DNA of 64,000 bases from an uncultured Clostridia bacterium. GTDB taxonomy: Bacteria > Bacillota > Clostridia > TANB77 > CAG-508. Made by a program: the position numbers and the translations under genes. Positions 19,684 through 43,286 of the stretch are shown here, one piece after another. The stretch spans positions 46,039 through 110,038 of the forward strand of contig CAKOVI010000004.1 in assembly GCA_934121905.1 (NCBI GenBank). The letters run 5' to 3'. The notes below the pieces were generated by a model that worked only from the letters and a program-made list of their open reading frames with translations, was not told where the DNA came from and searched no databases. Every line of letters starts with the position of its first letter. Position 1 is the stretch's first letter.

Positions 19684-19712
19684 TTGAAAAAAAAAAATCA
19701 TTATGTTATAGT
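19684..19712 (+). promoter_or_regulatory. candidate promoter of the fibre-locus operon
   Basis: TTGAAA (19684-19689), 17-nt spacer, TATAGT (19707-19712). Confidence 0.45.
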
Positions 19713-19761
19713 GAATATGTAATTAAAAAATTAAAATAATTATACTTTAGGAGGAAAAAGA

Positions 19762-20271
19762 ATGAAAAAGAAAATGTTAAATATTCTATTTATTATTTAT
19801 GTTGCAATTGCAATTTTTGTAACAATTTGTTTATTATCTTATAATAGGTTTAAGGTAACAGAGTTTGGAAATAAATCATTATTACTCATTACAGACGATG
19901 AAATGGCACCAGATTATAAAAAAGGAGATTTAGTTATAGTAGACAAAAAGTCTAAAATTATAACAGGAAGAAAAGCTTTTTTCTATACAACATCTGATAG
20001 AAAAATAGAAATAAAACTGGGAACAGTAGAAGCCATAAAAAATGTTTCAAATAGCGAAACAACCTATACTTTAGAAGGCGGTAGAGATATTTCTGGAGAA
20101 TACTTACTAGGACCTGTAGATACAGTAGAAATTATACCTGTAGTTGGAGGAATACTAAATGTGTTAGAATCAAAATGGGGATTCTTATTTCTTATAGTAT
20201 TGCCATCATTATTAGCTTTCGTTTATCAGATTTCTGTTGTTATAGCAGAAATAAAAAATAATGACGAATAA
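19762..20271 (+). CDS. SipW-type signal peptidase I homologue, apparently catalytically inactive
   Basis: It shares the architecture of the three active paralogues (N-terminal and C-terminal TM segments, GDLVIV box). The Ser box reads TDDEMAP instead of (T/S)xSMxP, and there is no THR(I) His box. Confidence 0.55.
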   Translation: MKKKMLNILFIIYVAIAIFVTICLLSYNRFKVTEFGNKSLLLITDDEMAPDYKKGDLVIVDKKSKIITGRKAFFYTTSDRKIEIKLGTVEAIKNVSNSETTYTLEGGRDISGEYLLGPVDTVEIIPVVGGILNVLESKWGFLFLIVLPSLLAFVYQISVVIAEIKNNDE

Positions 20272-20920
20272 AAGAAAGAGAAAAAATATGAGTTTGCTAA
20301 ACAAACAAAACAAAAAGAAATTAATTATTTTAGCTTGTATGTGTAGTATTTTAATTTTGATATATGAAATAGTACACATATATGCTATTTTTTACAGTGA
20401 AGTCACAGGAAATGTCGAATTTAAAAAAGGAGCATGGAATATTGTAATAAATGGAACAGAAATATCAAAAGGAGTTCAAAAAGATTTCGTTATTGACCAA
20501 ATTAATATTGATCAAAACGAACATGTAAAATCAGGAAAATTAGCTCCAGGATTATCAGGAAACTTTGAAATTATAATAAATCCTAAGAATACTGATGTTT
20601 CTGTTAAATATGAAATAAGTTTGAATAAAGAAAATATGAAAAATAGTAGTATTAAAATAAAATCAATCAATGAAACGGAATACAATAATGAGTTAATAAG
20701 AACTGACCAAAATACATATACGGCAATAATTCCTGTGGAAAAGATAAAACAAGGAGCAACAAATAGAATAAAAATTGAAATTGAATGGGAAAATGTAGAA
20801 ACAAATAATGAAGAAGACACAAAAGAAGGAAGTAAATATAAATCCAAATTACAAATCCCGATAACAGTAAAAGCAAGTCAATACTTAGGAGAAACAATTA
20901 TTCCATACAATGAAAACTAA
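20261..20920 (+). CDS. secreted TasA/camelysin-like protein (paralogue of 27978-28568); the start may be the ATG at 20288
   Basis: N-terminal signal ending IYA|IFYSE. Blocks AWNIVINGTEI, APGLSGNFEI and TDVSVKYEI are shared with the minus-strand paralogue. Confidence 0.55.
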   Translation: MTNKRKRKNMSLLNKQNKKKLIILACMCSILILIYEIVHIYAIFYSEVTGNVEFKKGAWNIVINGTEISKGVQKDFVIDQINIDQNEHVKSGKLAPGLSGNFEIIINPKNTDVSVKYEISLNKENMKNSSIKIKSINETEYNNELIRTDQNTYTAIIPVEKIKQGATNRIKIEIEWENVETNNEEDTKEGSKYKSKLQIPITVKASQYLGETIIPYNEN

Positions 20921-20957
20921 AGGGAAAGAATAAGTACTATATCCTTAAAAGAAAGAA

Positions 20958-21488
20958 ATGATTAAGAATATGAAAAAAACAAAAAAGATTAATGTAATTA
21001 TTGGTTATATGTTAAATATTCTTATAATAATCGTTGTTTTAATAACAATTATTGGATTATATTATATGGCACAAATAAAAATATTGAAAAAAGATTATGC
21101 AGATATGTTTGGTTATACTTTTTTTGAAGTTGCAACAGGAAGTATGGCTGATACCATAAATATTGGAGATGTAGTAGTAGTAAAAGTAAATGATGAAGTA
21201 AAAGAAAATGATATTATTGTTTATAAAGAAGAAAATAGTTTTATAACACATAGGATAATAAAAATAGATGGTCAAAATCTTATTACAAGAGGAGATGCAA
21301 ATAATAGCGAAGATAAGCCAATTAAATCAAGTCAAATCCTGGGAAAAGTAATATATATTATTCCTAAAATTGGAATATGGAGAAAAATTCTGGCATCACC
21401 AGAAATTCTAGGAATGATAATCGTTGCTATTATTTTATTAGGTATTATATTTATGTACACTTCGAAATCTGAAGATGAAAATGATTAA
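20958..21488 (+). CDS. SipW-type (ER/archaeal-like) signal peptidase I
   Basis: TGSMADT (Ser box), ITHRII (His box) and RGDANN, plus N- and C-terminal TM segments. Confidence 0.75.
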   Translation: MIKNMKKTKKINVIIGYMLNILIIIVVLITIIGLYYMAQIKILKKDYADMFGYTFFEVATGSMADTINIGDVVVVKVNDEVKENDIIVYKEENSFITHRIIKIDGQNLITRGDANNSEDKPIKSSQILGKVIYIIPKIGIWRKILASPEILGMIIVAIILLGIIFMYTSKSEDEND

Positions 21489-21505
21489 AGAAAGGAAAAC
21501 AAAGC

Positions 21506-22078
21506 TTGAACAAAAAAATAAAAAGATTATATGCAAAATTAATTATACTTATATTATGTTTATGTATATTAGTCAGAATTTTTACATTAGCATTGTCTAA
21601 ATATGAAAGTACAGCTAATTCAACAGCTGATGTTGACATTGCTTTTTACTTACTTCATGAAGATTATAAAACAATGACACTTAACCTAGACTCTTTATTT
21701 CCGAAAGATGATGTGTATGTATATGATTTTTCAATAGGCAATCAAAAAGATGAAGAACAAGCGGAAGTTGACATAGAGTATGAACTAACTATAAGAACAA
21801 CAACGAATTTACCATTAACATATAAGCTTTATATGAATGAGAAATACAATCAAAAAGATGCAAATGATATTATAAAGACAAATGAAATATATCAAGATGA
21901 AGATGGAACATATTTTAGAAAAATGACAACAGATAAAGAAGAACTTAAATATAAAGAACCTAAAACAAATACATACCAATTAGTAGTTTCATTTCCGAGC
22001 AATTATAATACAGAAAATTATCAAGACATAATTGAAGCGATAGAAATAAATGTAGATGGTAAGCAGATAATTTCATAA
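21506..22078 (+). CDS. secreted protein with SipW-type signal peptide (TTG start)
   Basis: N-terminal Lys-rich stretch and TM ending LALS|KYESTANS. The size and beta-rich composition resemble the other small locus proteins. Confidence 0.5.
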   Translation: MNKKIKRLYAKLIILILCLCILVRIFTLALSKYESTANSTADVDIAFYLLHEDYKTMTLNLDSLFPKDDVYVYDFSIGNQKDEEQAEVDIEYELTIRTTTNLPLTYKLYMNEKYNQKDANDIIKTNEIYQDEDGTYFRKMTTDKEELKYKEPKTNTYQLVVSFPSNYNTENYQDIIEAIEINVDGKQIIS

Positions 22079-22092
22079 AGAGGTGCTCAAAT

Positions 22093-23016
22093 ATGAGAAA
22101 AAACAGGAAATACAAGATAAAACAACTAATACTTTTGATATGTATTTTAATATGCACATTTTCATTTATAACTATATTTGGTAGATATATAACAAACAGT
22201 ATTAATAATTTTTTTGTTAGAAGTAAAGAATTTTATTTTTATAGTGATAAATTAGCTGAAGACGATTCTGCTGTATACCAAATTGACAATTGGTCTGGAG
22301 TTGATGACTATGTTATTACAGTTAATATGAATAGCAGAAAAAATAACTTAAAGGCGGTAGACTACGATATTGGATATGATATAAGTTATAAATGTAGTGA
22401 CAATGCAATATGTCAATTAAGCAAGACAGAAGGAATTGTATATGCAAATACAAATGCAGATTTCTTTAATTTAACAATAACACCTAACAGACAGTTAGAC
22501 ACAGGGGATAAAGTTGTTGTAGAAATAGAGGTAAATTCAACTGCAAAGTATCAAAAAAAACTTAAGGGAAAATTTACACTTGTAGTAGGAAAGGAAAAAA
22601 TAAGCTATCAAATTACAGATTCTAAACAAAATCCATATATGGAATTAAGAATCACCAATACACTATCTTACTATATGGTTAATGAAGCTTTTGGTCAATA
22701 TAGTGTTGGGGAAAAGATTGATAGTGATACATATTTAGCATTATCTGATTCAGAAAAAAAGAAATGTTATTCTGCACTTGTTACAATAGGATTTGATCCA
22801 AAAGATGTTTTATTTGATATTACAAATGAGGTTTATAAAGATGCGATAAATGTTGAAACAACAGTAGTTGATGGTAATACATATATTAAGGGATTAACAA
22901 TTTCAATTGAAGCTAGCTCAAGTGTAGATTTGAGGTTTTACAAAGTAAATGTAGCTAATGATTATACTTATCCGAATGGAAATTCATCTTCAATATTGAA
23001 AATTACAAGTAAATAG
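22093..23016 (+). CDS. secreted protein with SipW-type signal peptide
   Basis: Signal-anchor ending TIFG|RYITNS, with an AGAGGTG SD. I recognised no other family. Confidence 0.5.
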   Translation: MRKNRKYKIKQLILLICILICTFSFITIFGRYITNSINNFFVRSKEFYFYSDKLAEDDSAVYQIDNWSGVDDYVITVNMNSRKNNLKAVDYDIGYDISYKCSDNAICQLSKTEGIVYANTNADFFNLTITPNRQLDTGDKVVVEIEVNSTAKYQKKLKGKFTLVVGKEKISYQITDSKQNPYMELRITNTLSYYMVNEAFGQYSVGEKIDSDTYLALSDSEKKKCYSALVTIGFDPKDVLFDITNEVYKDAINVETTVVDGNTYIKGLTISIEASSSVDLRFYKVNVANDYTYPNGNSSSILKITSK

Positions 23017-23049
23017 CAAATATAAATACTTGAAAGGAATGTGAATAAT

Positions 23050-24048
23050 ATGACAATAAACTTAATGAGCAAGTATATAGATATAATAAAAAAACAAATA
23101 AATACATATATGAAAGCAGTATTCACAAATAAATTTAAGAAAGAATATAACGATAAATTCATAGAAAAATATATTAATACCAGATATTTTAATTTTTATG
23201 AAAATGATGAAAATAAAACAATAAGAAAGAAAATTATTGAACAATTAAAAATAACGCAAGATGATATAATATTAAACCATATTGAAGACAGAGAGTTAAT
23301 TGAGCAAATGTGTGTGTTTTTCTACTATGTATTATATTTAGACCATGTTGTTTATTATAAAGATTTGCACGAAAAGATAAACAAAACAGCGAAACTAAGG
23401 TATAAAGTGCTTGGAAAAAAGAGTGAAGAATATTCAGAAGAAATATATATCAAAATGCAAGAATTTGAAAAACAAAAGAAACAGCTAATAGAAGGTTTTG
23501 ATACCGAAGAATTTGCGATAAAACTTACAAACTATCCAGAAAAAAATAATATATATAGAGTAAATCTAACACAAAATATAAAATTTCCAAAAGAATATAG
23601 TGAATTTGCAATTAATAAAGCTTTTATGACAGGAAATGTTGGTGAAGACAGGCTTTTTGTGGAATATTATTTAGTAGTTGTACAAGTATTAAAAGACATT
23701 CTAAAACAAAATTTTAAAAGACAATATATAGTTGAATTTGCTTATACATTATTAAATAAACCAAAAAAATTAAATAATTTATTAAACATTATAAATAATT
23801 TAGCAACACAAGATAAAATCTGTTTGAAAATAAGGTATGAAGATTTTAAAAAGAAGAAAGAAGAAATATATGAACTTATGCGAGATGGATATAGGGTAGC
23901 ATTAATTATAGACAATTCATTTGAGGTGGACTATAAAAATATTGGGATGCTAAAAATGTTTAAATATATAATTATAGATAAACAATCGAAAAAATACGAT
24001 GAGATTAAAGATTACAGAAATTTATTAGAAAATGTAATAGAAATATAG
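23050..24048 (+). CDS. hypothetical cytoplasmic protein; the C-terminal half is faintly EAL-domain-like (degenerate)
   Basis: The ATG at 23050 is preferred, 11 nt after GAAAGGAA. LMRDGYRVALIIDNSFEVDYKNIGMLKMFKYIIIDK resembles the EAL block G..+A+DDFG....L..L..D.+K+D, but the catalytic residues are absent. Confidence 0.3.
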   Translation: MTINLMSKYIDIIKKQINTYMKAVFTNKFKKEYNDKFIEKYINTRYFNFYENDENKTIRKKIIEQLKITQDDIILNHIEDRELIEQMCVFFYYVLYLDHVVYYKDLHEKINKTAKLRYKVLGKKSEEYSEEIYIKMQEFEKQKKQLIEGFDTEEFAIKLTNYPEKNNIYRVNLTQNIKFPKEYSEFAINKAFMTGNVGEDRLFVEYYLVVVQVLKDILKQNFKRQYIVEFAYTLLNKPKKLNNLLNIINNLATQDKICLKIRYEDFKKKKEEIYELMRDGYRVALIIDNSFEVDYKNIGMLKMFKYIIIDKQSKKYDEIKDYRNLLENVIEI

Positions 24049-24061
24049 ACGAGGTTAAAAG

Positions 24062-25585
24062 ATGGATACATTTACAAGATTTTTATATGAATTTTTATCA
24101 CAATTCTTTTCAGGGTTTCTTACAATTTTGAAAGGATTGGGAAACGGAATTAAGCAAATTTTTGATATAAAATCATATCAAGAAATTTTAAAGTCATATC
24201 AAAGTGACTTATCTATGCCTGAATGGGTATTAGTTGGAATATCTATTTTCTGTTTGGTTGTATTAATTTTATTAATATTTGTTTTAATATATTTGTTAAT
24301 AAGAAAATATTTAAAATTTAGAAAACAAGCAATTAAACAAGATGAGCTAATGGCAGAAGTAGCTAATTTGAATGGAAAAGTAGCAAGCTTAGTAAAAGAA
24401 AAAGATGAAATTTTAGCAATGAAAGTTTCGCAATTAGGACTTAAACCAGAAGAATCTGCAGAAGAAACACCAGATGAAACTGGAGACAATTCTAATACAG
24501 ATCCGAATATAAGATTTTCAAAATTAGCACTAATTGACGAAGAATATGCAAAATATAAGCAAAAAGATTATGGTAATTCATTTACTCTTCCAGAACTTTG
24601 CGATAATTTCAGAAATTTCGCGGCATCTAAATTAGGACTATTTTATAAACCGGAAATGATGAGAATATTTATTGCTGGACTTGCATCAACAAAACTTGTA
24701 ATATTACAAGGTATTTCAGGAACTGGTAAAACATCTTTGGCATATGCGTGGGGAAAATTTATGAAACACGATTCATGTGTGGCATCTGTACAACCATCAT
24801 GGAGAGATAGAACAGATATGTTTGGGTACTTTAATGAATTTACTAAAAAGTTTAATGAAACAGAAATGCTTAAAGAAATGTATATAGCTGGATATTGTGA
24901 TGAAGTATTTACTGTTATATTAGATGAGATGAACTTATCTCGTGTTGAATATTATTTTGCAGAAATGCTATCAATTCTAGAAATGCCAAATAGAGCGGAA
25001 TGGTTAATAGAGTTGGTTCCAAATAGCTGGAAAACAGACCCTAAAAAAATAAAAGGCGGAAAGATACAAGTTCCTGCAAATATGTGGTATATAGGAACAA
25101 TTAATAATGATGATTCAACATTTGCTGTAACAGATAAGGTTTACGATAGAGCAATGCCAATAGATATAAATGATAAAGGAGTGCCATTTGAACCAATAGA
25201 TACTCCAGCACAAGATATTAATTTTTCATATTTAGATAATTTATTTGCATCAGCTATAAAAGATAACCCTATTTCACAATCAACTTTAGACAAAATAGAA
25301 CAGATGGATAACTACGTAATAGAGCATTTTAGAATAGCATTTGGTAACCGTATTGTTGCACATATGAAAAAATTTGTACCTGTATATGTAGCTTGTGGAG
25401 GAGATGAAGTTGCTGGAGTAGATTACTTTATTGCTAAAAAAATATTAAGAAAATTCGAGCAATTAAATATAGCATATATTAGAGACGAAATTGATCCATA
25501 TGTTGATTTCTTGGATAAAACATTTGGAAAAAATAAAATGAAGGAATGTATTGAATATTTATTAAGATTGAAAAAAATGTCATAA
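24062..25585 (+). CDS. membrane-anchored McrB-family AAA+ (GTPase-type) protein
   Basis: TM helix WVLVGISIFCLVVLILLIFVLIYLLI followed by a coiled coil. Walker A GISGTGKTS, Walker B VILDEMNLS, and McrB-like blocks VQPSWRDRTDMFGYF and WYIGTINNDDSTFAVTDKVYDRA. Confidence 0.65.
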   Translation: MDTFTRFLYEFLSQFFSGFLTILKGLGNGIKQIFDIKSYQEILKSYQSDLSMPEWVLVGISIFCLVVLILLIFVLIYLLIRKYLKFRKQAIKQDELMAEVANLNGKVASLVKEKDEILAMKVSQLGLKPEESAEETPDETGDNSNTDPNIRFSKLALIDEEYAKYKQKDYGNSFTLPELCDNFRNFAASKLGLFYKPEMMRIFIAGLASTKLVILQGISGTGKTSLAYAWGKFMKHDSCVASVQPSWRDRTDMFGYFNEFTKKFNETEMLKEMYIAGYCDEVFTVILDEMNLSRVEYYFAEMLSILEMPNRAEWLIELVPNSWKTDPKKIKGGKIQVPANMWYIGTINNDDSTFAVTDKVYDRAMPIDINDKGVPFEPIDTPAQDINFSYLDNLFASAIKDNPISQSTLDKIEQMDNYVIEHFRIAFGNRIVAHMKKFVPVYVACGGDEVAGVDYFIAKKILRKFEQLNIAYIRDEIDPYVDFLDKTFGKNKMKECIEYLLRLKKMS

Positions 25586-25598
25586 AGGAGATTAGAAA

Positions 25599-26753
25599 GT
25601 GGATAAGCTTGAAATTATCAATTTATATGAAAATTCAAATAAAAATAGAATAGAAGAATTTACGAGTAAAACAAATTCAACTTTAAAGGTAAATATTGAT
25701 AAAAAGAAAATGCAAAAAGATTCTGATTGGATTAAAATGATGGCATTTACTATTCCTTACTTAGACAATATATTCCATTCTCCAAATAGATTTATTGTTA
25801 ATGAAGAAGAAATAGTTAAAATTGAACAAGCCAAAAAGGTATCTGTAGAAACGATTAAGCATTTATCAAAAAATACCAATTTTATACAAACAGTAGATAA
25901 AGTGACAGGAGATGTTACACCATCTAAATTATTGAATGTAAGAAAAGAAGAAACTTATAATACATATGAAAACAGATTGATATATACATTGGTTCAAAAC
26001 ATGAAAAGATTTATAAAAAAGAAAAAGGAAAATTTAGGACAATATAAAAATGATGCAAACAAAGAAAACGATAATAGAGACAATAAATCATTTGAATATT
26101 CTGCAACTTCAACAGTAGAAGATGAGCAAATAGAAGTTAATTTATCTTTAAATTCAAAATTGAATCAAGATGCTCAAAATAAATCAAATGATATAACACA
26201 AATCATAGAAGAAATAGGTGAAATAGAAAAGAAAATACAAGGACTACAATCAACAGAAGTTTATAAAACTTTAGAAAAACAGCATGTTATAGAAGTAAGA
26301 GAGCCTATAAAAAAGACCAATGTAATACTAAAGAATGTTAATTTTCAATATGCAATGAAATTGTGGGACTATTTAAGAGATAATTTTGATGATAAAAATC
26401 TTGACTCAGTAGAGAAAAAAGATTATATGGACAACAGTGAATTAAAGAAGATGGTTGATGAAACGTTTTTGTTACACTATCTAACAATGAAAACATTGGA
26501 TGATGATATGGAGGAAAAACAAGATACAAAAGAAGAAATGCAAAATATGGTGGTTGACCAAATGATAGACAAAATGTTAGAAATAAATGAAAACTTTAGT
26601 GAAGACCAAATAAAAGATTTAATAGCAAAAAAATATGAAATTATTAAATATAAAAAGACAGCTGTTATACAAGAAATACAAAAAACATTTAAAGAACACA
26701 TAAAACAATATATGAAAAAAATTGGTAATAGAGAGGAAACAGAAGAATGTTAA
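25599..26753 (+). CDS. partner protein of the McrB-like ATPase (DUF2357/McrC-N-like block, no nuclease motif seen; GTG start)
   Basis: AAGGAG lies 7 nt upstream of the GTG. ETYNTYENRLIYTLVQNMKRFI resembles the conserved block of McrC-related partners. The C-terminal half is acidic or coiled coil. Confidence 0.4.
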   Translation: MDKLEIINLYENSNKNRIEEFTSKTNSTLKVNIDKKKMQKDSDWIKMMAFTIPYLDNIFHSPNRFIVNEEEIVKIEQAKKVSVETIKHLSKNTNFIQTVDKVTGDVTPSKLLNVRKEETYNTYENRLIYTLVQNMKRFIKKKKENLGQYKNDANKENDNRDNKSFEYSATSTVEDEQIEVNLSLNSKLNQDAQNKSNDITQIIEEIGEIEKKIQGLQSTEVYKTLEKQHVIEVREPIKKTNVILKNVNFQYAMKLWDYLRDNFDDKNLDSVEKKDYMDNSELKKMVDETFLLHYLTMKTLDDDMEEKQDTKEEMQNMVVDQMIDKMLEINENFSEDQIKDLIAKKYEIIKYKKTAVIQEIQKTFKEHIKQYMKKIGNREETEEC

Positions 26754-27325
26754 AGAAAATAAAAAAAATAAAGGAAAATAAGGCTTTAAAAATAATTGGT
26801 AATATCTTATATTTTATATTATTTTTAATAGTTGTTTTAATGCTAATTATAGTAATTATACAAAGAACATCAAATAATTCTATATCGATTGGAGGTTATA
26901 GAATATTTGCTGTTGCAACAGGAAGCATGGTACCTAAATATGAGGTAGGAGATGTGATAATATCTAAGGAAATTGAACCTAGTGAAATAAAGGTAGGAGA
27001 TACTGTTGTATATAAAGGAGAGGTTGGAGGTTTTAAAGATAAATTTGTAACTCACCAAATACAATCAATAAATAAACAAGAAGATGGAACATATAAATTT
27101 ACAACAAAGGGAATTTCAAATATAGAGGCAGATCCGGAAATCTCTGAAACTCAAGTATATGGAAAAATAATATATAAAGTGAAAACTTTAAGTCTAATAA
27201 GTAAGTTAATTTCAAATGTTTACGTATTTTACTTTTTCATATTTGTTCCAATAGCAATTATAATATATAAACAGATAAGAAATTTAATAAGGGAAGATGA
27301 AGAAGAGGATGAAGACAATAAATAA
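26747..27325 (+). CDS. SipW-type signal peptidase I
   Basis: TGSMVP (Ser box) and VTHQI (His box), with N- and C-terminal TM segments and an acidic tail. Confidence 0.7.
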   Translation: MLKKIKKIKENKALKIIGNILYFILFLIVVLMLIIVIIQRTSNNSISIGGYRIFAVATGSMVPKYEVGDVIISKEIEPSEIKVGDTVVYKGEVGGFKDKFVTHQIQSINKQEDGTYKFTTKGISNIEADPEISETQVYGKIIYKVKTLSLISKLISNVYVFYFFIFVPIAIIIYKQIRNLIREDEEEDEDNK

Positions 27326-27342
27326 CAAAGGAGGAAAAAAAT

Positions 27343-27942
27343 ATGTATAAAGTATTGAAAATAATGAAAAAAATCAAAATAAGAAATTTAATAATACTAA
27401 TATTATTACTTGTTTTCAATGCTTATGCATGGTTTGTGTATACAACTAGAGTATCCCTTGACTTATCTGCACATGTCAGCTCATGGGATGTTCAATTTGT
27501 TGCAAAAGATGGAGGAATATCATCTGATATGATTATAAAAGTTGAAAATTTTTATCCTGGAATGGAAGATTTTGAAAAGATTATAGAGGTACAAAACAGA
27601 GGAGAAGTCAATGTTGAGTTAAGCTACGAAATTGAATCCGTAAGAATAATGGATGAAACTATTGAAAAAAATGACGAAACAGGGGTTACATCAGAAAGTA
27701 TTGAGGAAAAATTAAAAAACGATTATCCTTTTAAAATTAACATAGTAAAAGATGATTCAAATTTAATAACAGGTTCTGGTAATGGAAGTTTTAAAATAAC
27801 AGTTGTATGGCCATATGAATCTGGAGATGATGAGGCAGATACTAATTGGGGAAGAAAAGCATACGAGTATTATGAGAACAATCCTGATAAAGAATGCATA
27901 GAATTAAAGTTAGTGTTAAAAGCTACTCAAGCAAAAAATTAA
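27343..27942 (+). CDS. secreted TasA/camelysin-like protein
   Basis: Signal ending NAYA|WFVYTT. FYPGMEDFEKIIEVQNRGEVNVELSYEI resembles the TasA PGD...N.G block. Confidence 0.6.
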   Translation: MYKVLKIMKKIKIRNLIILILLLVFNAYAWFVYTTRVSLDLSAHVSSWDVQFVAKDGGISSDMIIKVENFYPGMEDFEKIIEVQNRGEVNVELSYEIESVRIMDETIEKNDETGVTSESIEEKLKNDYPFKINIVKDDSNLITGSGNGSFKITVVWPYESGDDEADTNWGRKAYEYYENNPDKECIELKLVLKATQAKN

Positions 27943-27971
27943 AAGGATTTAAAAAAAATTTAACTCCTTTT
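27941..27971. terminator. bidirectional hairpin between convergent fibre-locus genes
   Basis: aaaaggatttaaa / tttaactcctttt (1 mismatch). Confidence 0.45.
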
Positions 27972-27977
27972 ATTTTA

Positions 27978-28568
27978 TTATTTTAATTGTGTAAATGAAA
28001 TATCAACATGTAAAAGAGCAGGGATATCAGAGTTAGTAGAAAGAGTATCTTCTTCGTTTGTCATAGATGAGGTTGTCTCATCATCATTCCACAATACATA
28101 AATACGAATTTTTCTTGCTGTGATTTTGCTGTCTAAAGAAATTGTTTCTGATATTGGTTCATTGAAGTTAGAAAAAGATATTTTTTCACCATTATCTATG
28201 GAATAGCCTGTTGTAACTAAGTCTCTTACAGAGCTATTTTCTGCAACAGATGTGTTGATTTCATATTTAAAAGAAACATCAGTACCAGAAAAGTCGAAAT
28301 TTAAATCGAAATACCCTTCAGCAGTTGGTGCTATTATATTGCTTGCAATATTTTCGTTACCGGGAAAGACTGGTACAATTGCTGACGATATATCTGTGTT
28401 ATTTTTTATAGATAAGTTATTTATGGAAATATTCCAATTTGCTATTTTTATTGATGCATCTCCGGTAGCGGTTGTAAGATACTTAGCATAAATTTGTATA
28501 ACAAAAAATACTAAAATACATATTAAAAAAGAAATTAATAATAATAATAATTTTTTTTGATTTTTCAT
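27978..28568 (-). CDS. secreted TasA/camelysin-like protein (paralogue of 20261-20920)
   Basis: The start is chosen at MKNQKK (AAAGAGGT SD). Signal ending IYA|KYLTTATGD. Blocks ANWNISINN, APTAEGYFDL and TDVSFKYEI are shared with its paralogue. Confidence 0.6.
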   Translation of the reverse strand: MKNQKKLLLLLISFLICILVFFVIQIYAKYLTTATGDASIKIANWNISINNLSIKNNTDISSAIVPVFPGNENIASNIIAPTAEGYFDLNFDFSGTDVSFKYEINTSVAENSSVRDLVTTGYSIDNGEKISFSNFNEPISETISLDSKITARKIRIYVLWNDDETTSSMTNEEDTLSTNSDIPALLHVDISFTQLK

Positions 28569-28652
28569 AATTAAATACCTCTTTAGGATTTTAATTTTAA
28601 CATAATAAATGTAATAAATCAAGAAAAAATCAAAAAAGGAAAGGACAAATTT

Positions 28653-38300: not shown

Positions 38301-41128
38301 ATGGAACAACTCAAACCAATATTGGTTATGATACAGTACAAGATTCTTCTTTAGAAAAAGGAGAAATACAAATAGGCGGAACTGTATTTGGCGGAGGAGA
38401 AGCAAATGAATCAGGTAGTGAAGTATATGATTTCTCATTTATAAGTGTAACAAAAGGAATTGATATTCAAATCGATGGAAATGGTTATGATAAATTTGCA
38501 ATAAAAGGAAGTATATTTGGTTCTGGAAACGCTTCTAGTACAAGTGGTGAAAGTTATATAACAATAAAAAATTATGGTACATCAGATTCGCCACAAAGTA
38601 ATATTTCAATCCAAAGAGCAAACTGTGCAACAATTAGTAATTCTGCAATTTCACTTTCTGGAGCTACTGATAGAACAAATGAGTATAAATCTGAATTTTT
38701 CTCATTAAGTAGGGTAGACCAAGTAAAATTAAAAGATAATTCTATATTATATTTATGCAATGGAGCCAACTTATTAAAAGAATTGGATAGTATAGCAGAT
38801 GTAAATGGAATAGAAGAAAAAGGTGCTGTTACAATAGATTCTGATACAGGAGAAACTACTAAAAATGTTGATAATAGAATCTATATGTTAGAAGGAAAAA
38901 ATCTAAATATAGCAACAAATGAACAAGTAACAGCATATGGAAAAGTACAAGGAATGTTCTTTTTAGGACTATTTACAAATAGAATGAATCCGAGTACAAG
39001 TACAGGATTTTATCATAGTGGATACAATAATGGAGATGCAATAACAAATGCGGGAACATTTTCATCAAACTCATATGCTATGGCACAACATATGACAGAT
39101 CATGATACATCCATAGATGGTTTTTACACAAATTACAACAAAGATGGTATAGTAAAAACAGATTATATAGATACAACTCCAAAAGATGATGTTTACTATA
39201 TTTGGCTTGTTGGGGAAAAAATGGATGTTACAGTATTTGAAATGAGTTTAACTGCATCAAAATACGCAACTTTGGGAACTTATGAATTACTATTACAAGG
39301 ATTTTCAGATCCTAATATAAAATTTGCAATTACAGGATTTTCAGCTGGACTTGCAAATGGCATATCACTTGTTAATCCAGATGAAATACCATCAATAGAA
39401 CCAGATGAGGAAAAAGCAAATTCTGTGTATGGTTTATCTATGAAAACAGGAAATATTGGTTGGAAAAACAAAGGAAGTACAGTATTTCTAACACAAGATG
39501 GTGGAAAATATACAGGAACAAATGACTATGATGCAGATAATTCGACATATACGCCAACGCTTAATTTCTGTTTTTACCACTCACAAAATATTACTAAAAA
39601 ACAGGGACTTGGGGATGTAAGAATCAGATTGCAAGTTTTAACCCCAATTGATGATTTAAATTATAAATTGTCATATATAGATATAAATATTACTTTGTCA
39701 AGTGCATTATATCAAAATGACTTTTACGAAGCGGCAATAACCCCAGGACAGGAATTTGGATTATTTACTACAACAGAAACAACAATAACAAATAAAAGTG
39801 CGTTTTCTACATATTATTCTTTGTATATAGAAGATTTCTCTCAAAGTAAATATTATGCAAACTACAAAAACTATAGTAGGGTATTAGTTTCAAGAGATAA
39901 AAATAATAGTCCATATTGTTTCCCTGTAAACACAAAACTTACTATGTTGGATATGGTAACAAACAAATATTATTATTATATTGTAACTGAGGAAGATGTA
40001 AATCAAAATAAATATGTTTACAATATATCAGATTTTACGGCTATGGGAAGTAATGATGGCAAGTATGATGAAAAATCTGCGTGTGATAATTACTATAATG
40101 CCGAAAAAGATTTAATATATGAAAATTTCATTTTTCATATTAATTTTGCTGATAGCTCGCTTGAAAATAATATAGAGCAAAATACACTATTAATGGAATT
40201 AAGAGATACAGAAAATCAAACATTGCTCGGAGTTCTTGGAATTCAAAGAGACACCATGAAATATACTGTGTATAATGGAAAAGATGCAACAATAAAATTA
40301 TCTGGAGACTTAAATCCTGAAACTCTATATCTTGGAAATACATTAAATTTGAATGTTATTACGAATTTTACACAAACAGTTGTAAATTCAAAAACAGTAT
40401 ATGATACACAATATTTTGATAAAAAATTAGGTGTAAAAATAAGTATCTATGATAACAATGGGAATAGACTAAACAGTGATAGTTTATTTGGTGTAAACTT
40501 CGAATTAGACGGTAAATTGTATTATCCAAGAGTAGAGGGTACAACTAGAATTAGCATAGCAGATAAAGTTACAGATGTTTTAGCCAGATTAAAATTGAAT
40601 ACACAAAACAATACTACATTGGCAACAGGAGATTATAAAATAAAGATAGAATCATTTGGTTCATCAGATGGAATATATTATGGACTAACAGCATCAGATA
40701 AGATTGAATTAAATGTAAGAATAATAAATTCTCAATATGGACTAAAGGTAACAACAGAAGATGAATTAAAAATAGTAGATAAAGATACTGGATTTACTTT
40801 AAATGGAAATGGAACATTTACTAGCAAAATAGAATATTCATCAGGACTATCAAATCCTAGTATTGCAGTATCATTATACAGAAGAGATTATACTGATACA
40901 TATTCTGAAAAATATAATTTAGTTGATTTAACTGATTATGTTAAAGATTATATGTCACCAACTACAAGAGAAAAGGAATATTCGGTTTCTGTTAAGCCTA
41001 CAAATGAAATAAATTACACGTTTTTACTAAAAGACCATTTGGTTTCTGGAACTTATAAATTGGTTTACAAATTATATGATGATAATACATATGTTGGCGA
41101 GGCATATGAATATATAGTAATAAAATAA
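32399..41128 (+). CDS. giant (2909 aa) secreted beta-helix repeat protein / putative adhesin
   Basis: N-terminal signal anchor (LGIKAFRDS). Dozens of (V/I)(Y/F)GG(G/S/A)N repeats lie at about 35.15-38.56 kb and resemble polymorphic-membrane-protein or parallel beta-helix repeats. Inserted lectin-like and CBM-like modules are present. No LPXTG. Confidence 0.8.
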   Translation: MKKINKKKILILIGFVIIVLLGIKAFRDSRAENVIDIESNFKDSSGLVSDETMQIKALNEGKNGISVTLPDIVNNKKIKKYIITKKDIMNDSTNEVSNNVIENLVENEVNESANVSINASQDTANNTSGETTNEDNIIEMNPGEKIYLTQEEKDNSEISFTIEYDTITVNQTVLYNKSLIAENGDKEIICLSGYMPFDTQIKVENTDISNIENQIKQSYQDCIIYGNYNIKLSTNDEDYNPKKYEQKLNIEFTVDENKKYNLLEVQDEIIQEIKDFKVDSGKIIIQTDEIKAYLILENQPKEEQINNQDEVQNDETVFSDEVLVESDDTDDSILEIDDYDSDKNYYTGLNYTENESKVNSGIYPESKLRKVTVNYYGYNYDLGKPEKQEKHNITLSATANKTDTGSVIQDWEQSDWGGWNQIYTRTDTITCTVSGLNQIREKYSDCKFSKWTAKIAVPNDNFNSYFNSDLTNSANSGISVSLENSVITVTGDSFQGLNDSSDTWSFKFKVSFKDSSDWYINNISYDSLTVNSFETLVTIGPENPYGTISDTETQAVISYKKCLPVDSSGNITMELIDNPFMNRPEGKGFNGWKTNNTKYSGSISTNTNDFVQTLKTNENNIKDSSGNYVIDLYPDWIEANIVFVSSSGSSSNDGRSESSPIYNDWNTINSKLNSNIKTCSKASNREANIVVLMNGALNISGITGPNTAYTLTSLYNGTNYGSSSTYLNVGTNNVTLDSDFQLDYIYVSSNASYSSPSGTSDGTYLISPCIYGNMYNLRVGRGIISTNDNNCAWAQIQGGYYNRSSSEFKLVIESGKYTNVQLYRAYYSNNGRYGADTGATTSTTANGILVIGNDIDRNKNNNEKLKIFNRMASRTTTSTNTPYTANNSKALTIEMVIKSGTIGVDYFNSQGTGDSSERNYAGIYVGGHGQTGYDKSDRRVIVEGGNIANIIGGLNVDESDKYKTYIYVKNGNVINITGGAGYTHTYGDRIIQVTGGCIKYSISGGSNGVAASTNTNNGQLTGNSLIYVGGDAHIGATYSIDDNGNKQISETDTSQTLYGVNAGSVCGGANGNNRYAGQTDGSYIIIDGSAVVHNNVFGGGNYGTIGSSSNNTGAEVIDLKNETSSFTTNKEYLITNSSNGGNGLKANGTSVANEAISAKSIPGDGTKWIFESANGGDYYIKNASTGSYLYMRITSAWWSTSASLELSTSNKTAFSVSGSNSKQIYYYYNGRRGTNYYISYSNGWNASTYSTNLYFLTYELKETEETKDAETLVNIKALGGTIKNNIYGGANRNSIYGTVDIAINNGNIEGVTYGGSNLEGNIMGSVLMNISGGQLGIKSDAATHDYYSTDTLFGGGLGSSTKVNGRVLININDKSGNLNIYGNVYGGSSLGTINNNVNININDIYSDTNTVSITGNVFGGGKGNDSTAALVTGNINISVDGSNLPKCNAFGGSDVNGDVNGTIYVKIGENNVSTINSVYGGGNQAAIGTETKEVKVYLLSNAVVTNAFNGGKSADLLSSSESDETRQIYLQGGTAQNIYGGSDSSGTVTVSHLYIESGNAGNVYGGNNQGGTTTITYVNIKGGIIDKVYGGGEKAETTTSNISTTGGTVNYIFGGGNQAGVTTTNINTKGGNIGSAYGGSNTSGNVNESFVNTNDSDEIQTNKKITMEIKKEVSIAQDWQKGNYTTYSTLAKLTVTIKNNTENNITKWNANITVPESVLRVNDSSADITQNNGSYNITEKNRYYGTNTIQANGSFSFTFEILTMQSVEDFGLVYSLSGKDDKGNSLSYDESRIGTVYGGNNQGGVTTTSHVTVNGGEVQNVYGGGNQAVTNETNVNINGKVAKNVFGGGNQAGVNTNTNVNLNGAIVGDNIYGGGNEGIVTGDTFVYVKNSDLSNSLYAGGNGATAVVYGNTNLYMHGTNSVTNSVFGGGNKAETGTEEKNSSKSSVNIVGAIIGKNVYGGANTSVVYGTTQTNIGYDTVQDSSLEKGEIQIGGTVFGGGEANESGSEVYDFSFISVTKGIDIQIDGNGYDKFAIKGSIFGSGNASSTSGESYITIKNYGTSDSPQSNISIQRANCATISNSAISLSGATDRTNEYKSEFFSLSRVDQVKLKDNSILYLCNGANLLKELDSIADVNGIEEKGAVTIDSDTGETTKNVDNRIYMLEGKNLNIATNEQVTAYGKVQGMFFLGLFTNRMNPSTSTGFYHSGYNNGDAITNAGTFSSNSYAMAQHMTDHDTSIDGFYTNYNKDGIVKTDYIDTTPKDDVYYIWLVGEKMDVTVFEMSLTASKYATLGTYELLLQGFSDPNIKFAITGFSAGLANGISLVNPDEIPSIEPDEEKANSVYGLSMKTGNIGWKNKGSTVFLTQDGGKYTGTNDYDADNSTYTPTLNFCFYHSQNITKKQGLGDVRIRLQVLTPIDDLNYKLSYIDINITLSSALYQNDFYEAAITPGQEFGLFTTTETTITNKSAFSTYYSLYIEDFSQSKYYANYKNYSRVLVSRDKNNSPYCFPVNTKLTMLDMVTNKYYYYIVTEEDVNQNKYVYNISDFTAMGSNDGKYDEKSACDNYYNAEKDLIYENFIFHINFADSSLENNIEQNTLLMELRDTENQTLLGVLGIQRDTMKYTVYNGKDATIKLSGDLNPETLYLGNTLNLNVITNFTQTVVNSKTVYDTQYFDKKLGVKISIYDNNGNRLNSDSLFGVNFELDGKLYYPRVEGTTRISIADKVTDVLARLKLNTQNNTTLATGDYKIKIESFGSSDGIYYGLTASDKIELNVRIINSQYGLKVTTEDELKIVDKDTGFTLNGNGTFTSKIEYSSGLSNPSIAVSLYRRDYTDTYSEKYNLVDLTDYVKDYMSPTTREKEYSVSVKPTNEINYTFLLKDHLVSGTYKLVYKLYDDNTYVGEAYEYIVIK

Positions 41129-41141
41129 GGAAAGGTAAAAT

Positions 41142-41735
41142 ATGAAATACGATATTAAATCTATAGAAAAAAGAAAAAAGAAAGAAGTAATGATAAAAAA
41201 TGTATTAAAAGTAATTTTAATTCTTTTAATATATAATATGATTTTGTTAGGCATTTCTGCTATGGATAATAATGAAAATATTAATATTTTTGGATTTAAA
41301 TCTTATATTATTACTACAAATAGCATGGAACCAAATATAAGAATGGGTGATGCGGTTATATGTAAAAAAATAAAAACGGAAGATTTAAAAGAAGGTGATG
41401 TAATAACTTTCTCCAAAGATGGAGAAAGTATTACTATCACACATCGTATTATAAAAATAGAAGATAATAACGGAAAAAAATCTTATATCACTAAAGGAGA
41501 CAATAACACTTTAGAGGATAATGAAAAAGTAGAAGATAGTCAAATAAGAGGCAAAATGGTTATTGTTATTCCTAGAATTGGAAACTTTATAAAATTATTG
41601 TCAAATAATATTATAGTTTTGATATTGATATTAGTTGTATTAATATTATGGTTTATGAAAATATTGATTAATGAAAAGAGAGAGAGTAGGAGAGAAAAAA
41701 GAAAAATTGAAGAAGCAAAAAGTAAAAAATATTAA
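41142..41735 (+). CDS. SipW-type signal peptidase I
   Basis: TNSMEP (Ser box), ITHRII (His box) and KGDNN, with N- and C-terminal TM segments and a basic tail. Confidence 0.75.
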   Translation: MKYDIKSIEKRKKKEVMIKNVLKVILILLIYNMILLGISAMDNNENINIFGFKSYIITTNSMEPNIRMGDAVICKKIKTEDLKEGDVITFSKDGESITITHRIIKIEDNNGKKSYITKGDNNTLEDNEKVEDSQIRGKMVIVIPRIGNFIKLLSNNIIVLILILVVLILWFMKILINEKRESRREKRKIEEAKSKKY

Positions 41736-42285
41736 GTTTTATAAGACTTTGAAGATTAAAAGATGTACATATAAATTAATATATATTTTATTAATGTTAA
41801 TATTTATATATAATATAATATTTTTGATAAATAGTGTTATTTTAAAAAATGAATATTTTAAATTTTCAAAAATAAATATGCTTTCTATGAATACCGATTT
41901 GATGGAAAATGATATAAGCAAAAATAGTTTAGTTATTGTCAAGAAAACTAAGAAATCGGAATTGAAAAATAATGATATTATTGCATATGAGGTTAATGGG
42001 AAAATTAGAATTAATAGATTAATTAATAAGTATAATGATGAAAATAGTGGACAAGAAGTATATTCTACGAAATCAAATCTAAATTATTATCCTGATATTG
42101 AAAATATTTCATACGAGCAAATAATAGGAAAAAAGATTATAAATATACCTTTCTTAGGTGTATTTATTAAAATTTTTCAGTCGAAAATAATTAGTTTTGT
42201 TTGTACTTTTATTTTGATATTAATGTTTATAATTAACGATTCTAAAATTAAAAGAGAAAAAAGAAACAGAAGAAGAAAAATGTAA
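41671..42285 (+). CDS. SipW-type signal peptidase homologue, probably inactive (start uncertain; the TTG at 41749 is a candidate)
   Basis: The architecture matches the active paralogues. However, the His box reads INRLI and the GD(N/A)N box reads KSNLN. Confidence 0.5.
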   Translation: MKRERVGEKKEKLKKQKVKNIKFYKTLKIKRCTYKLIYILLMLIFIYNIIFLINSVILKNEYFKFSKINMLSMNTDLMENDISKNSLVIVKKTKKSELKNNDIIAYEVNGKIRINRLINKYNDENSGQEVYSTKSNLNYYPDIENISYEQIIGKKIINIPFLGVFIKIFQSKIISFVCTFILILMFIINDSKIKREKRNRRRKM

Positions 42286-42317: not shown

Positions 42318-42346
42318 TTGACAGGTTTGTGTAGATATAATACAAT
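42318..42346 (+). promoter_or_regulatory. sigma-A type promoter of pyrBI
   Basis: TTGACA (42318-42323), 17-nt spacer, TACAAT (42341-42346). Confidence 0.6.
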
Positions 42347-42371
42347 AAACAAAAATCAAGGAGGAATTAAA

Positions 42372-43286
42372 ATGAGACATTTAATCGATATCAAAGAACT
42401 ATCAGTAGAAGAAATAGACGAATTAATCAAAGTAGCCAAAAATATAATTGCACATCCTGAAGAATATCATGAAAAGTGCAAATATAAAAAATTGGCTACT
42501 TTATTTTTTGAACCAAGTACAAGGACAAGACTAAGTTTTGAAGCAGCAATGATGGAACTTGGAGGAAATGTAATAGGATTTTCAGAAGCATCATCTAGTT
42601 CGGCTTCAAAAGGAGAAAGCGTATCAGACACAGTAAAAATTGTAGGAGGATATAGTGATATAATAGCAATGAGACATCCAAAAGAAGGTGCACCACTTGT
42701 TGCATCACTAAAATCAGATGTTCCAATAATAAATGCAGGAGATGGAGGACATAATCATCCAACACAAACACTAACTGATTTATTAACAATATCATGTGAG
42801 AAAAATAGATTAGATAATTTGACAATAGGATTATGTGGAGACCTAAAATTTGGTAGAACAGTACATTCATTAATTACGGCAATGTCAAGATATAAAAATA
42901 TAAAGTTTGTATTAATTTCGCCTGAAGAGTTAAAATTACCTGAATATGTAAAAGAAGATATATTAGATAAAAATAATATTCAATATGTTGAAACAAATGA
43001 TATAGAAGAATACCTAGGAGATTTGGATATTTTATATATGACAAGAGTCCAAAAGGAAAGATTTTTCAATGAAGAAGATTATTTAAGATTAAAAGATTAT
43101 TACATATTAAATAAAGAAAAATTAGAAAAAGCTAAAAAAGATTTATGCATATTACATCCACTACCAAGAGTTAATGAAATTTCAGTAGAAGTAGATAATG
43201 ACCCAAGAGCTTGTTACTTTAAACAAGCAAGGTACGGAAAATATATAAGAATGGCACTTATTTTGAAATTATTAAATATAAAATAG
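42372..43286 (+). CDS. pyrB: aspartate carbamoyltransferase catalytic subunit
   Basis: The ATG at 42372 follows [20 protein letters not shown] and HPLPR are the ATCase signature blocks. Confidence 0.92.

Follow-up and report, generated by a model that had tools for sequence, protein, structure and literature searches.

The 64,000-nucleotide stretch of contig CAKOVI010000004.1 from an uncultured Clostridia bacterium (the window) carries, between recD2 (16433-18460) and pyrB (42318-43286), a 22.6-kb locus that encodes five signal peptidase homologues, seven small secreted or membrane-anchored proteins, a giant repeat protein and a McrB/McrC-like GTPase module. The analyses showed that these genes belong to a real, co-conserved and uncharacterised system, which is a member of a class that has been named, CoCoPALM, but remains unstudied; the role of its GTPase is one that we infer. 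The genes are a co-conserved functional unit and not a mosaic; the McrB/McrC-like pair, far from being an embedded passenger, forms its conserved core. That the locus is a CoCoPALM-type system for a surface fibre seems to us somewhat probable. Designations and coordinates of all features are given in Table 1.

Conservation and distribution of the locus

The family of the major subunit (gene 29527) was found in at least 480 confirmed stretches when each GTDB species was scanned in one representative genome. The 3157 homologues of this protein are all metagenomic and carry neither a name nor a Pfam domain. As the other subunits of the locus likewise lack both a name and a Pfam domain, the system is invisible to current annotation. 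A total of 83 related loci were retrieved, of which 79 came from the species-representative scan. All 83 lie in assemblies of uncultured organisms, either metagenome-assembled genomes (MAGs) or metagenome contigs, and many of the names indicate a human or animal gut. The submitter labels of the 79 scan loci are Clostridia, Bacilli, Mollicutes/Tenericutes and Erysipelotrichaceae, with a few others, e.g., Muribaculaceae and Bacteroidaceae; Clostridium sp. CAG:628 and one closed chromosome of 1.55 Mb are among them. The locus of a Hadza gut MAG (L005) is 98% identical to the window.

Conservation of the gene neighbourhood, which the first-pass annotation of the window had proposed as a check, was assessed by tblastn of 17 window proteins against the 83 loci. 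The same gene families occurred together in 52 of them, in two gene orders, and in 52 loci, again in both orders, the McrB/McrC-like pair was kept together with g335 upstream and pepC downstream. The g335 gene always stands directly upstream of the GTPase gene, whichever the order. Among the fully sampled loci, i.e., those that extend 9 kb or more to either side of the major-subunit gene (n = 46), the GTPase gene lies beside pilin and peptidase genes in 34: 26 have the order of the window and eight have the permuted order giant-cc524-pepA-s1-pepB-s2-major-s3-g335-McrB-McrC-pepC-s4. The GTPase is also the best-conserved protein of the locus, with 61-93% identity across loci, compared with 41-80% for the major subunit.

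Three distant relatives of the GTPase, at 32-36% identity, were examined (L084, L085 and L086), and no names were found for them. The linkage to a peptidase and to small secreted proteins, here with an A-W-x-(T/I) junction, recurs in the first two. In L084 the GTPase gene lies beside a McrC-like gene, a SipW-like peptidase gene and genes for secreted proteins with 'ATYAWFS' or 'SFAWFT' junctions, while in L085 the GTPase and a DUF2357 protein are encoded together with a SipW-like peptidase and five small secreted proteins whose junctions read 'A(A/G)W.IT'. Two further NTPase genes were seen beside these cores: in L084 (15696-16847, minus strand) one for a protein of 383 aa that has an EssC/FtsK-like domain (TIGR03928, 1.6e-6), and in L085 (12412-13173) one for an ABC-type ATPase.

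These data bear on the possibility that the pair is an unrelated defence module inserted by chance into a SipW/TasA-type operon. McrBC modules are common and mobile defence genes, and the pair is a compact two-gene unit. However, its constant association with g335 and pepC in 52 loci and two gene orders, the recurrence of the linkage at 32-36% identity in L084 and L085, the transmembrane anchor of the GTPase and a partner without a nuclease make a chance insertion very improbable. The McrB-like identity recognised in the first-pass annotation stood, with matches of the pair to NF008457, 6hz4 and DUF2357, while the description of the pair as embedded did not, since it is a conserved core linked in two gene orders.

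The GTPase module

The McrB-like protein has the Walker A motif GISGTGKTS, the Walker B motif ILDEMN and the signature GTIN-N-D-D-ST. Its transmembrane segment spans about residues 54-80, and a short stretch that is helical and rich in Lys and Glu comes next. The search for homologues among 1.84 billion representatives gave 8334 relatives at E ≤ 1e-3 and 761 at E ≤ 1e-30. In the best 150 representatives (50% clustering), the signature reads GT[AI]N-x-D-[DE]-ST, in which the N and the D are near-invariant, the middle residue is variable and a D or E follows. Relatives with a transmembrane segment are about 450-650 aa long; relatives of 700-870 aa without one appeared in the same search and are presumably CoCoNuT-type.

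The NxD variant of the signature defines the CoCoNuT/CoCoPALM branch of McrB-like GTPases (Bell et al., eLife 2024, PMC11090510). CoCoPALM is named there in one paragraph, without a component list, and its analysis is deferred to a forthcoming paper. According to the same source, CoCoPALM GTPases form a large clade in which the shortened NxD signature is usually followed by D or E, and they carry a fused FtsB-like N-terminus with a transmembrane helix and a coiled coil; a McrC homologue is present, both McrB and McrC usually have coiled coils, and genes of the signal peptidase family are associated with them. Three of these four features were found in the window: the NxD GTPase, the McrC homologue with DUF2357 and the associated signal peptidase genes. 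As for the fourth, homology of the GTPase N-terminus to FtsB/DivIC was not reproduced with Pfam, where no DivIC/FtsB match was obtained even at E ≤ 10, although the architecture of a transmembrane segment plus a helix fits. The N-terminus gave weak matches to proteins with a transmembrane segment and a coiled coil (PRK09039, 4e-4; ATP synthase B', 0.054), and its crude coiled-coil score was below the threshold. The suggestion of a possibly new assembly system was thus overstated, as the class already has a name, even if it is uncharacterised. A literature search for a follow-up paper on CoCoPALM found none.

The McrC-like protein has coiled-coil-like segments at residues 126-159 and 182-214, as estimated with a crude heuristic. 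No nuclease match was obtained for it, and the C-terminal half contains no invariant D/ExK across the family alignment. Checks with Pfam, PADLOC, the alignments and PDB profiles found neither a nuclease domain nor a HEPN-like partner. The product of g335 had no match in Pfam, PADLOC or PDB. A degenerate EAL domain, suspected from the C-terminal 'VALIIDNSF...IIID', was rejected, with no Pfam match at E ≤ 10 and no PDB profile match. The 524-aa coiled-coil protein of the first-pass annotation, cc524, is indeed helical, with coiled-coil-like segments by the same kind of heuristic. It was considered as a second McrC-like protein on the strength of a BLASTP value of 5e-8, uncorrected for composition, but this candidate was dropped: the hhalign probability was 0.2%, so the similarity is compositional. 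PDB profile searches with the McrC-like protein and cc524 returned nothing useful. In all, two or three helical proteins of the cytoplasm accompany the GTPase and its McrC-like partner.

Another explanation of the locus is a conflict or defence system related to the CoCoNuT type IV restriction systems, in which the GTPase would sense infection and the exported proteins would serve as effectors or as a barrier or decoy at the surface, and not as a housekeeping pilus. The GTPase does belong to the NxD branch, which otherwise holds CoCoNuT restriction-like systems, its AAA+ domain matches the candidate defence model PDC-M26A (1.4e-33), and the relatives of 700-870 aa that lack a transmembrane segment turn up in the same search. 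A defence function is nevertheless unlikely, given that no nuclease domain or HEPN-like partner was found, that no protein of the locus evolves more slowly than the GTPase (61-93% identity), that 480 or more stretches of species-representative genomes contain the major-subunit family, that the flanks are housekeeping genes and the G + C content is native, and that the major subunit has strong expression signals of its own.

Signal peptidases

Five SipW-type peptidase homologues had been reported for this locus, and all five were recovered at the same positions (pepA to pepE). They were scored against TIGR02228, the NCBIfam model of archaeal-type signal peptidase I (cut-off 51.85 bits): pepB, pepC and pepD lie above the cut-off, and pepA and pepE below it. 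None of the five reached the 190-bit cut-off of NF046067, the equivalog model of Bacillus subtilis SipW, the best being pepD with 95.7 bits. Judged from their sequences, the peptidases are relatives of SipW and not its orthologues.

The catalytic residues were compared in an alignment of the five window paralogues with 146 orthologues from related loci. The Ser, the His and both Asp residues of pepB are invariant in 43 of 43 sequences. In pepC, the Ser, the His and the second Asp are invariant (47/47), and the Asp of the GD motif is replaced by I, V or L in 45 of the 47. The position of the His in pepA is never occupied by His in 59 sequences (58 orthologues and the window copy) and is mostly Gly or Ala; the Ser position is variable. 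Because of this Ser/His pattern, pepB, pepC and pepD are probable enzymes, while pepA and pepE, which lack the catalytic Ser and His, are pseudo-enzymes. That the pseudo-enzyme pepA, a paralogue of pepD (BLASTP 4e-8), is kept by the entire family speaks for a function other than catalysis.

If pepE starts at its first ATG, it overlaps the end of pepD by 65 nucleotides (41671-41735), and the true start is possibly further downstream. In L003, the position of pepB (1022-1574) is occupied by two short open reading frames (ORFs) of 71 and 75 aa, which suggests either a disruption of this otherwise invariant active enzyme or an assembly error.

Subunits and their common signal

The seven small proteins and the giant protein share a basic, Lys-rich N-terminus followed by one transmembrane helix. 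The junction after the helix is clear in s1 (IYA|IF), s4 (AYA|WF), s5 (IYA|KY), s6 (VYA|TG), the major subunit (TYA|WF) and the giant (IKA|FR), and less clear in s2 and s3. Of the signal first described for all seven small proteins, the N-terminus and the helix are thus general, whereas the junction is not equally evident in each; the similar signal ascribed to the 2909-aa protein was borne out. The TasA-like blocks of the type 'PG...(F/Y)x(V/L)xNxG...Y.I', noticed earlier as PG...N.G, are present in the consensus of the s2, s3, s4 and s6 orthologues and of the s1/s5 family.

Every homologue of the major subunit starts at the residue corresponding to Met9. The model of SipW-cognate signals, TIGR04088 (cut-off 19), gave 18.5 bits and an E-value of 0.0017 for this protein, just below the cut-off, and no match at E ≤ 0.1 for the other subunits. 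In an alignment of 40 homologues that are 51-95% identical to the window protein, the h-region and the junction form the most conserved 18-residue window (0.93, versus 0.62 for the mature part). The AlphaFold2 (AF2) model of the major subunit (pLDDT 82.9, pTM 0.81) consists of an N-terminal helix and a beta-rich domain, with a low-confidence stretch at residues 31-51 that includes a post-junction strand at 42-51. The weak Foldseek matches of this model are only generic jelly-roll or lectin-like folds.

The minor subunits s1, s4 and s5 are paralogous (BLASTP 4e-19 for s1-s5 and 2e-6 for s1-s4; also 4e-4). The N-termini of the major family (A1) and of the s1/s5 family (A3) align in hhalign (E 5.6e-6), and nothing else aligns. 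The model of s5 (pLDDT 79.6) has the same layout as that of the major subunit, with a low-confidence post-junction strand at residues 31-41. Its top Foldseek match is FimG (3jwn_G, E 1.4e-4), followed by the TasA fibre (8aur_A, E 2.8e-4, probability 1.00, TMq 0.37, 212 aligned columns) and AbpA (7ueg_A, E 1.7e-3, probability 0.99); a PapG pilin domain was also matched. These matches are weak but coherent, as all of them are donor-strand-complemented fibre subunits. The low-confidence post-junction strands in the monomer models of the major subunit and s5 are compatible with donor-strand exchange and are no proof of it. Searching PDB sequences with the s1/s5 family profile gave no match at E ≤ 10, and a similarity to TasA by sequence was rejected on this ground and for the lack of a Peptidase_M73 match. 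The proposal of TasA-like substrates accordingly survives in part, in the SipW-cognate-like signal and the weak fold matches of s5, and fails for the Peptidase_M73 signature and for the fold of the major subunit. The same division applies to the suggested structural comparison with TasA and archaeal bundling pilins, in which s5 found 8aur and 7ueg and the major subunit found neither. The first-pass annotation had staked its reading on some structural or hidden Markov model (HMM) similarity to TasA-like folds; the s5 matches provide a weak similarity of this kind, but the support is modest and does not reach the major subunit.

The s6 gene is split into two ORFs, one of 73 aa with the signal and transmembrane helix and one of 169 aa with the globular part, which overlap in ATGTATGA. 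The split is found in the window, in L005 and in two 68%-identical relatives (L001 and L002), whereas most other loci have a single ORF of about 245 aa, with a difference of one nucleotide. Possible causes are a conserved frameshift, translational coupling and decay. A C-terminal EGxDxxCxxN motif is common to s6 and the major subunit.

The claim that gene 29527 has its own strong promoter and terminator agrees with the signals seen there. Of all promoter-like sites in the 13.6 kb scanned, the one at 29442-29470 matches best; the number of such sites in that region is not above that in shuffled sequences. The gene is followed by a terminator-like hairpin with a 17-bp stem (z -6.9). At the position of the tiny ORF between this gene and cc524, ORFs of 35-40 aa were called in L001-L004.

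The giant protein contains 18 [VIF][YF]GG repeats between residues 1000 and 2000, many of them 24-33 residues apart. It gave no useful match to Pfam, NCBIfam or PDB profiles and has no LPXTG anchor motif. The LPXTG-like motif is in fact absent from every locus protein, and the Pfam/NCBIfam scans of these proteins detected no sortase, type IV pilus, Tad or flagellar domains, in agreement with what had been noted from the letters alone.

Two other arrangements of the exported proteins were weighed. In one, the major subunit keeps its N-terminal helix, and the product is a fibre of the type IV pilus kind, with a helix-bundle core that the GTPase motor extracts from the membrane, in place of one formed by cleavage and donor-strand exchange. 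The conservation of the h-region and junction (0.89-0.93 versus 0.62) is not usual in Sec signals that are cleaved and is characteristic of the pilin alpha1-N segment, a membrane nucleoside triphosphatase (NTPase) is part of the system, and two of the peptidase paralogues are unable to cleave. All this is offset by three peptidases with strictly conserved catalytic residues, by a junction that resembles those of SipW substrates, by the lack of a prepilin peptidase, a PilC-like platform or a G|F(T/M)LxE motif among the locus proteins, and by the resemblance of s5 to donor-strand pilins, so that we give a retained helix little probability. In the other arrangement, the 330-aa protein is the lattice subunit of a surface layer, sheath or matrix and the giant is a separate adhesin. 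This is rather unlikely: while the major subunit lacks a pilin or TasA match, shows only weak generic jelly-roll/lectin-like matches and carries high-expression signals, and while the giant has no anchor motif, the minor subunits have a pilin-like predicted fold, one major and several minor subunits with one signal are the classic layout of a pilus, and the monomer models show disorder in the common N-terminal strand region.

Proposed mechanism and significance

For the CoCoPALM-type fibre that we favour, the following sequence of events may be proposed. The peptidases pepB, pepC and pepD would cut at the YA|xF junction and so free an N-terminal strand, which would then complete the beta-sandwich of the following subunit in the manner known from TasA, AbpA and chaperone-usher pili. 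The major subunit would make up the fibre itself, the minor subunits would serve as its initiator, adaptor or tip, and the giant would be an adhesin. The pseudo-peptidases might bind the unusually conserved signal helices without cutting them and thus act as scaffolds, holdases or receptors. The GTPase hexamer, stimulated by the N-domain of the McrC-like protein, would act from the cytoplasmic face through its transmembrane helix to gate or drive subunit release from the membrane and transit across the wall. Possible regulators of the hexamer are g335, cc524 and the 34-aa peptide. Such a role would be analogous, not homologous, to that of the type IV pilus ATPase. The full form of this proposal, in which a GTP-driven membrane motor derived from McrB, and hence from a restriction-type ancestor, powers or gates a sortase-independent donor-strand fibre processed by signal peptidases, with the pseudo-peptidases as receptors of the signal helix, is put forward tentatively, and we regard it as possible rather than probable.

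Several observations weigh against a GTPase-assisted fibre. Its assembly is wholly inferred, no filament having been seen. To our knowledge, TasA and chaperone-usher fibres need no cytoplasmic NTPase, and the GTPase is without precedent in donor-strand systems. In 12 of the 46 fully sampled loci there is no GTPase gene within 10 kb, and the GTPase may be dispensable or encoded elsewhere in those 12 genomes. In addition, the third distant relative, L086, is a McrB/McrC-like pair alone in a polysaccharide-gene context, with no peptidase or pilin genes nearby. On the side of the subunits, the Peptidase_M73 HMM (PF12389), proposed earlier as a test of the small proteins, matched none of the window proteins at E ≤ 0.01 and none of 145 orthologues (45 + 100; E ≤ 10 and E ≤ 1). 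The fold matches of s5 are weak (E ~1e-4, TM-scores 0.3-0.4), and the major subunit model gave nothing below E 0.02 (PDB) or 0.004 (BFVD) in Foldseek, with no TasA or pilin match. In the twelve loci without a nearby GTPase gene (L017, L028, L033, L037, L046, L051, L052, L057, L059, L072, L079 and L081), cc524 and the giant gene still accompany the major-subunit gene and a peptidase gene.

All donor-strand fibres that we know of (TasA, AbpA, chaperone-usher, type V) are assembled without a cytoplasmic NTPase, and all NTPase-driven pili known to us use PilB-type ATPases and helical pilins. If the proposal is true, the combination of TasA-like subunits, SipW-type processing and a McrB-type GTPase would be a third solution to fibre assembly, and the motor of a restriction enzyme would have been exapted for cell-surface biogenesis. 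It would also mean that a new class of prokaryotic filament machinery is in use in many uncultured bacteria, with assemblies that stem largely from the gut. As the family is widespread and many of the loci are labelled as gut-derived, the 330-aa subunit and the 2909-aa protein are good candidates for adhesins or antigens shown to the host. The CoCoPALM class itself is without an experimental or structural description, yet it is present in many genomes of uncultured organisms, many of them from the gut.

Genomic setting

All genes of the locus are on the plus strand except s5, which alone is on the minus strand. The G + C content is low across the whole window (25-32%), and that of the locus is the same as that of its flanks. 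The flanking genes are housekeeping genes, encoding the Suf system, pyruvate:ferredoxin oxidoreductase (PFOR), RecD2, PyrB, CarB, trigger factor and a PBP5-type carboxypeptidase. It follows from these flanks that the organism is walled and that the locus is chromosomal and not an island. The Rfam scan of the window found nothing, and no paralogues of the locus proteins were detected elsewhere in the window.

The orf303 gene lies between recD2 and the locus, and its product had no match in Pfam or NCBIfam. Because relatives of orf303 adjoin the locus in five loci (L005, L008, L073, L048 and L063), it may belong to the system. Upstream of recD2, two ORFs (8666-9955, 429 aa; 13876-15768, 630 aa) had no Pfam match at E ≤ 1e-5.

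Table 1. Features of the locus between recD2 and pyrB, with window coordinates (aa, amino acids).
Feature	Position	Strand	Characteristics
orf303, cytoplasmic protein without family assignment, possible accessory	18674..19585	minus	303 aa; between recD2 and the locus
Promoter-like site, first block	19684..19712	+	TTGAAA-17-TATAGT, extended -10 TG; 10/12 matches, among the region's top; consensus match only
pepA, SipW-like predicted pseudo-peptidase	19762..20271	+	TIGR02228 19.3 bits (below cut-off), weak SipW match; Ser->Glu, no His
s1, minor subunit	20261..20920	+	One transmembrane segment, IYA|IF; paralogue of s5 and s4
pepB, archaeal/SipW-type signal peptidase	20958..21488	+	TIGR02228 72.6 bits; catalytic residues intact
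s2, small secreted/anchored subunit	21506..22078	+	N-terminal transmembrane segment; conserved in 57 loci
s3, secreted/anchored subunit	22093..23016	+	307 aa; N-terminal transmembrane segment; conserved in 50 loci
g335, cytoplasmic protein without family assignment	23041..24048	+	No transmembrane segment; conserved in 49 loci
McrB-like NxD GTPase	24062..25585	+	507 aa; NF008457 2.7e-4, PDB McrB 6hz4 1e-3, PADLOC PDC-M26A 1.4e-33
McrC-like protein	25599..26753	+	DUF2357 (PF09823) 7.9e-15, residues 22-159; coiled-coil-like tail
pepC, archaeal/SipW-type signal peptidase	26747..27325	+	TIGR02228 79.8 bits
s4, minor subunit	27343..27942	+	AYA|WF junction, TasA-like PG...N.G block
s5, minor subunit, opposite strand	27978..28568	minus	Predicted fold donor-strand-pilin/TasA-like
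s6, split gene	28653..29376	+	Signal/transmembrane part 28653-28874, globular part 28867-29376
Promoter-like site, major subunit gene	29442..29470	+	TTGACA-17-TATTAT, 11/12 matches
Major subunit	29527..30519	+	330 aa from Met9; TYA|WF junction; TIGR04088 18.5 bits
Terminator-like hairpin after major subunit gene	30542..30583	+	17-bp stem, -25.1 kcal/mol, z -6.9, then UUAUUUGU
Conserved tiny ORF	30666..30770	+	34 aa, K/E-rich (MNLEKETTENLIKIYEQIENFIKFLEKEKKEMKE); GGAGG upstream; between major subunit gene and cc524
cc524, cytoplasmic helical protein	30798..32372	+	524 aa; no transmembrane segment; heuristic coiled-coil-like segments; present in 53 loci
Giant secreted repeat protein, candidate adhesin	32399..41128	+	2909 aa; N-terminal signal, IKA|FR junction; present in 46 loci
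pepD, best SipW-like peptidase of the locus	41142..41735	+	TIGR02228 110.8 bits, NF046067 95.7 bits; Ser, His, both Asp present
pepE, SipW-like predicted pseudo-peptidase	41671..42285	+	TIGR02228 44.4 bits (below cut-off); Ser->Leu, His->Asn by alignment

Comparison with known systems

The locus agrees with CoCoPALM in its NxD GTPase with an N-terminal transmembrane and helical segment, its DUF2357/coiled-coil-like McrC protein, its signal peptidases and its occurrence in Bacillota. To that description it adds the subunit families, the pseudo-peptidases, the giant, g335, cc524, the tiny ORF, the two gene orders and the spread of the system.

In the operons tapA-sipW-tasA of B. subtilis, calY/tasA of Bacillus cereus and sipW-bsaA of Clostridium perfringens, as here, a dedicated peptidase of the ER/archaeal type adjoins its substrates, the conserved signal of the substrates has an aromatic-Ala|x-Phe junction and no sortase is present; one minor subunit of the locus, s5, also has a TasA-fibre-like model. 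These operons have one peptidase and one to three subunits, whereas the locus has five peptidases, two of them inactive, and at least seven subunits. Unlike them, it lacks the Peptidase_M73 signature and a recognisable fold of the major subunit, and it includes a giant repeat protein and, as the chief difference, a membrane GTPase module to which nothing in TasA systems corresponds.

The archaeal bundling pili (ABP) of Pyrobaculum, formed by AbpA/AbpB, have a TasA-like jelly-roll subunit and are assembled by donor-strand insertion; their loci contain no dedicated peptidase, and the word 'ATPase' is absent from the text of the paper (PMC9245690). The model of s5 resembles AbpA (7ueg_A), and both the peptidase set and the NTPase set the locus apart from ABP loci.

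The likeness to type IV pili and type II secretion is one of analogy: many subunits have a common N-terminal signal, a single major subunit is accompanied by several minor ones, the peptidases are dedicated, and a hexameric NTPase is associated with the membrane. There is no homology, as an AAA+ GTPase of the McrB type is present here in place of the PilB-type ATPase, the class III signal is missing, and the aspartic prepilin peptidases of those systems contrast with the Ser/His signal peptidases of the locus.

Finally, the AAA+ GTPase core with its Walker A/B motifs and asparagine/aspartate signature is common to the locus and McrBC of Escherichia coli, as is a partner with the McrC N-terminal domain, which in McrBC inserts into the pore of the hexamer. 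The locus differs in that the signature is NxD rather than NxxD, the PD-(D/E)xK nuclease is missing, a transmembrane anchor replaces the DNA-binding domain, and the context is one of surface proteins.

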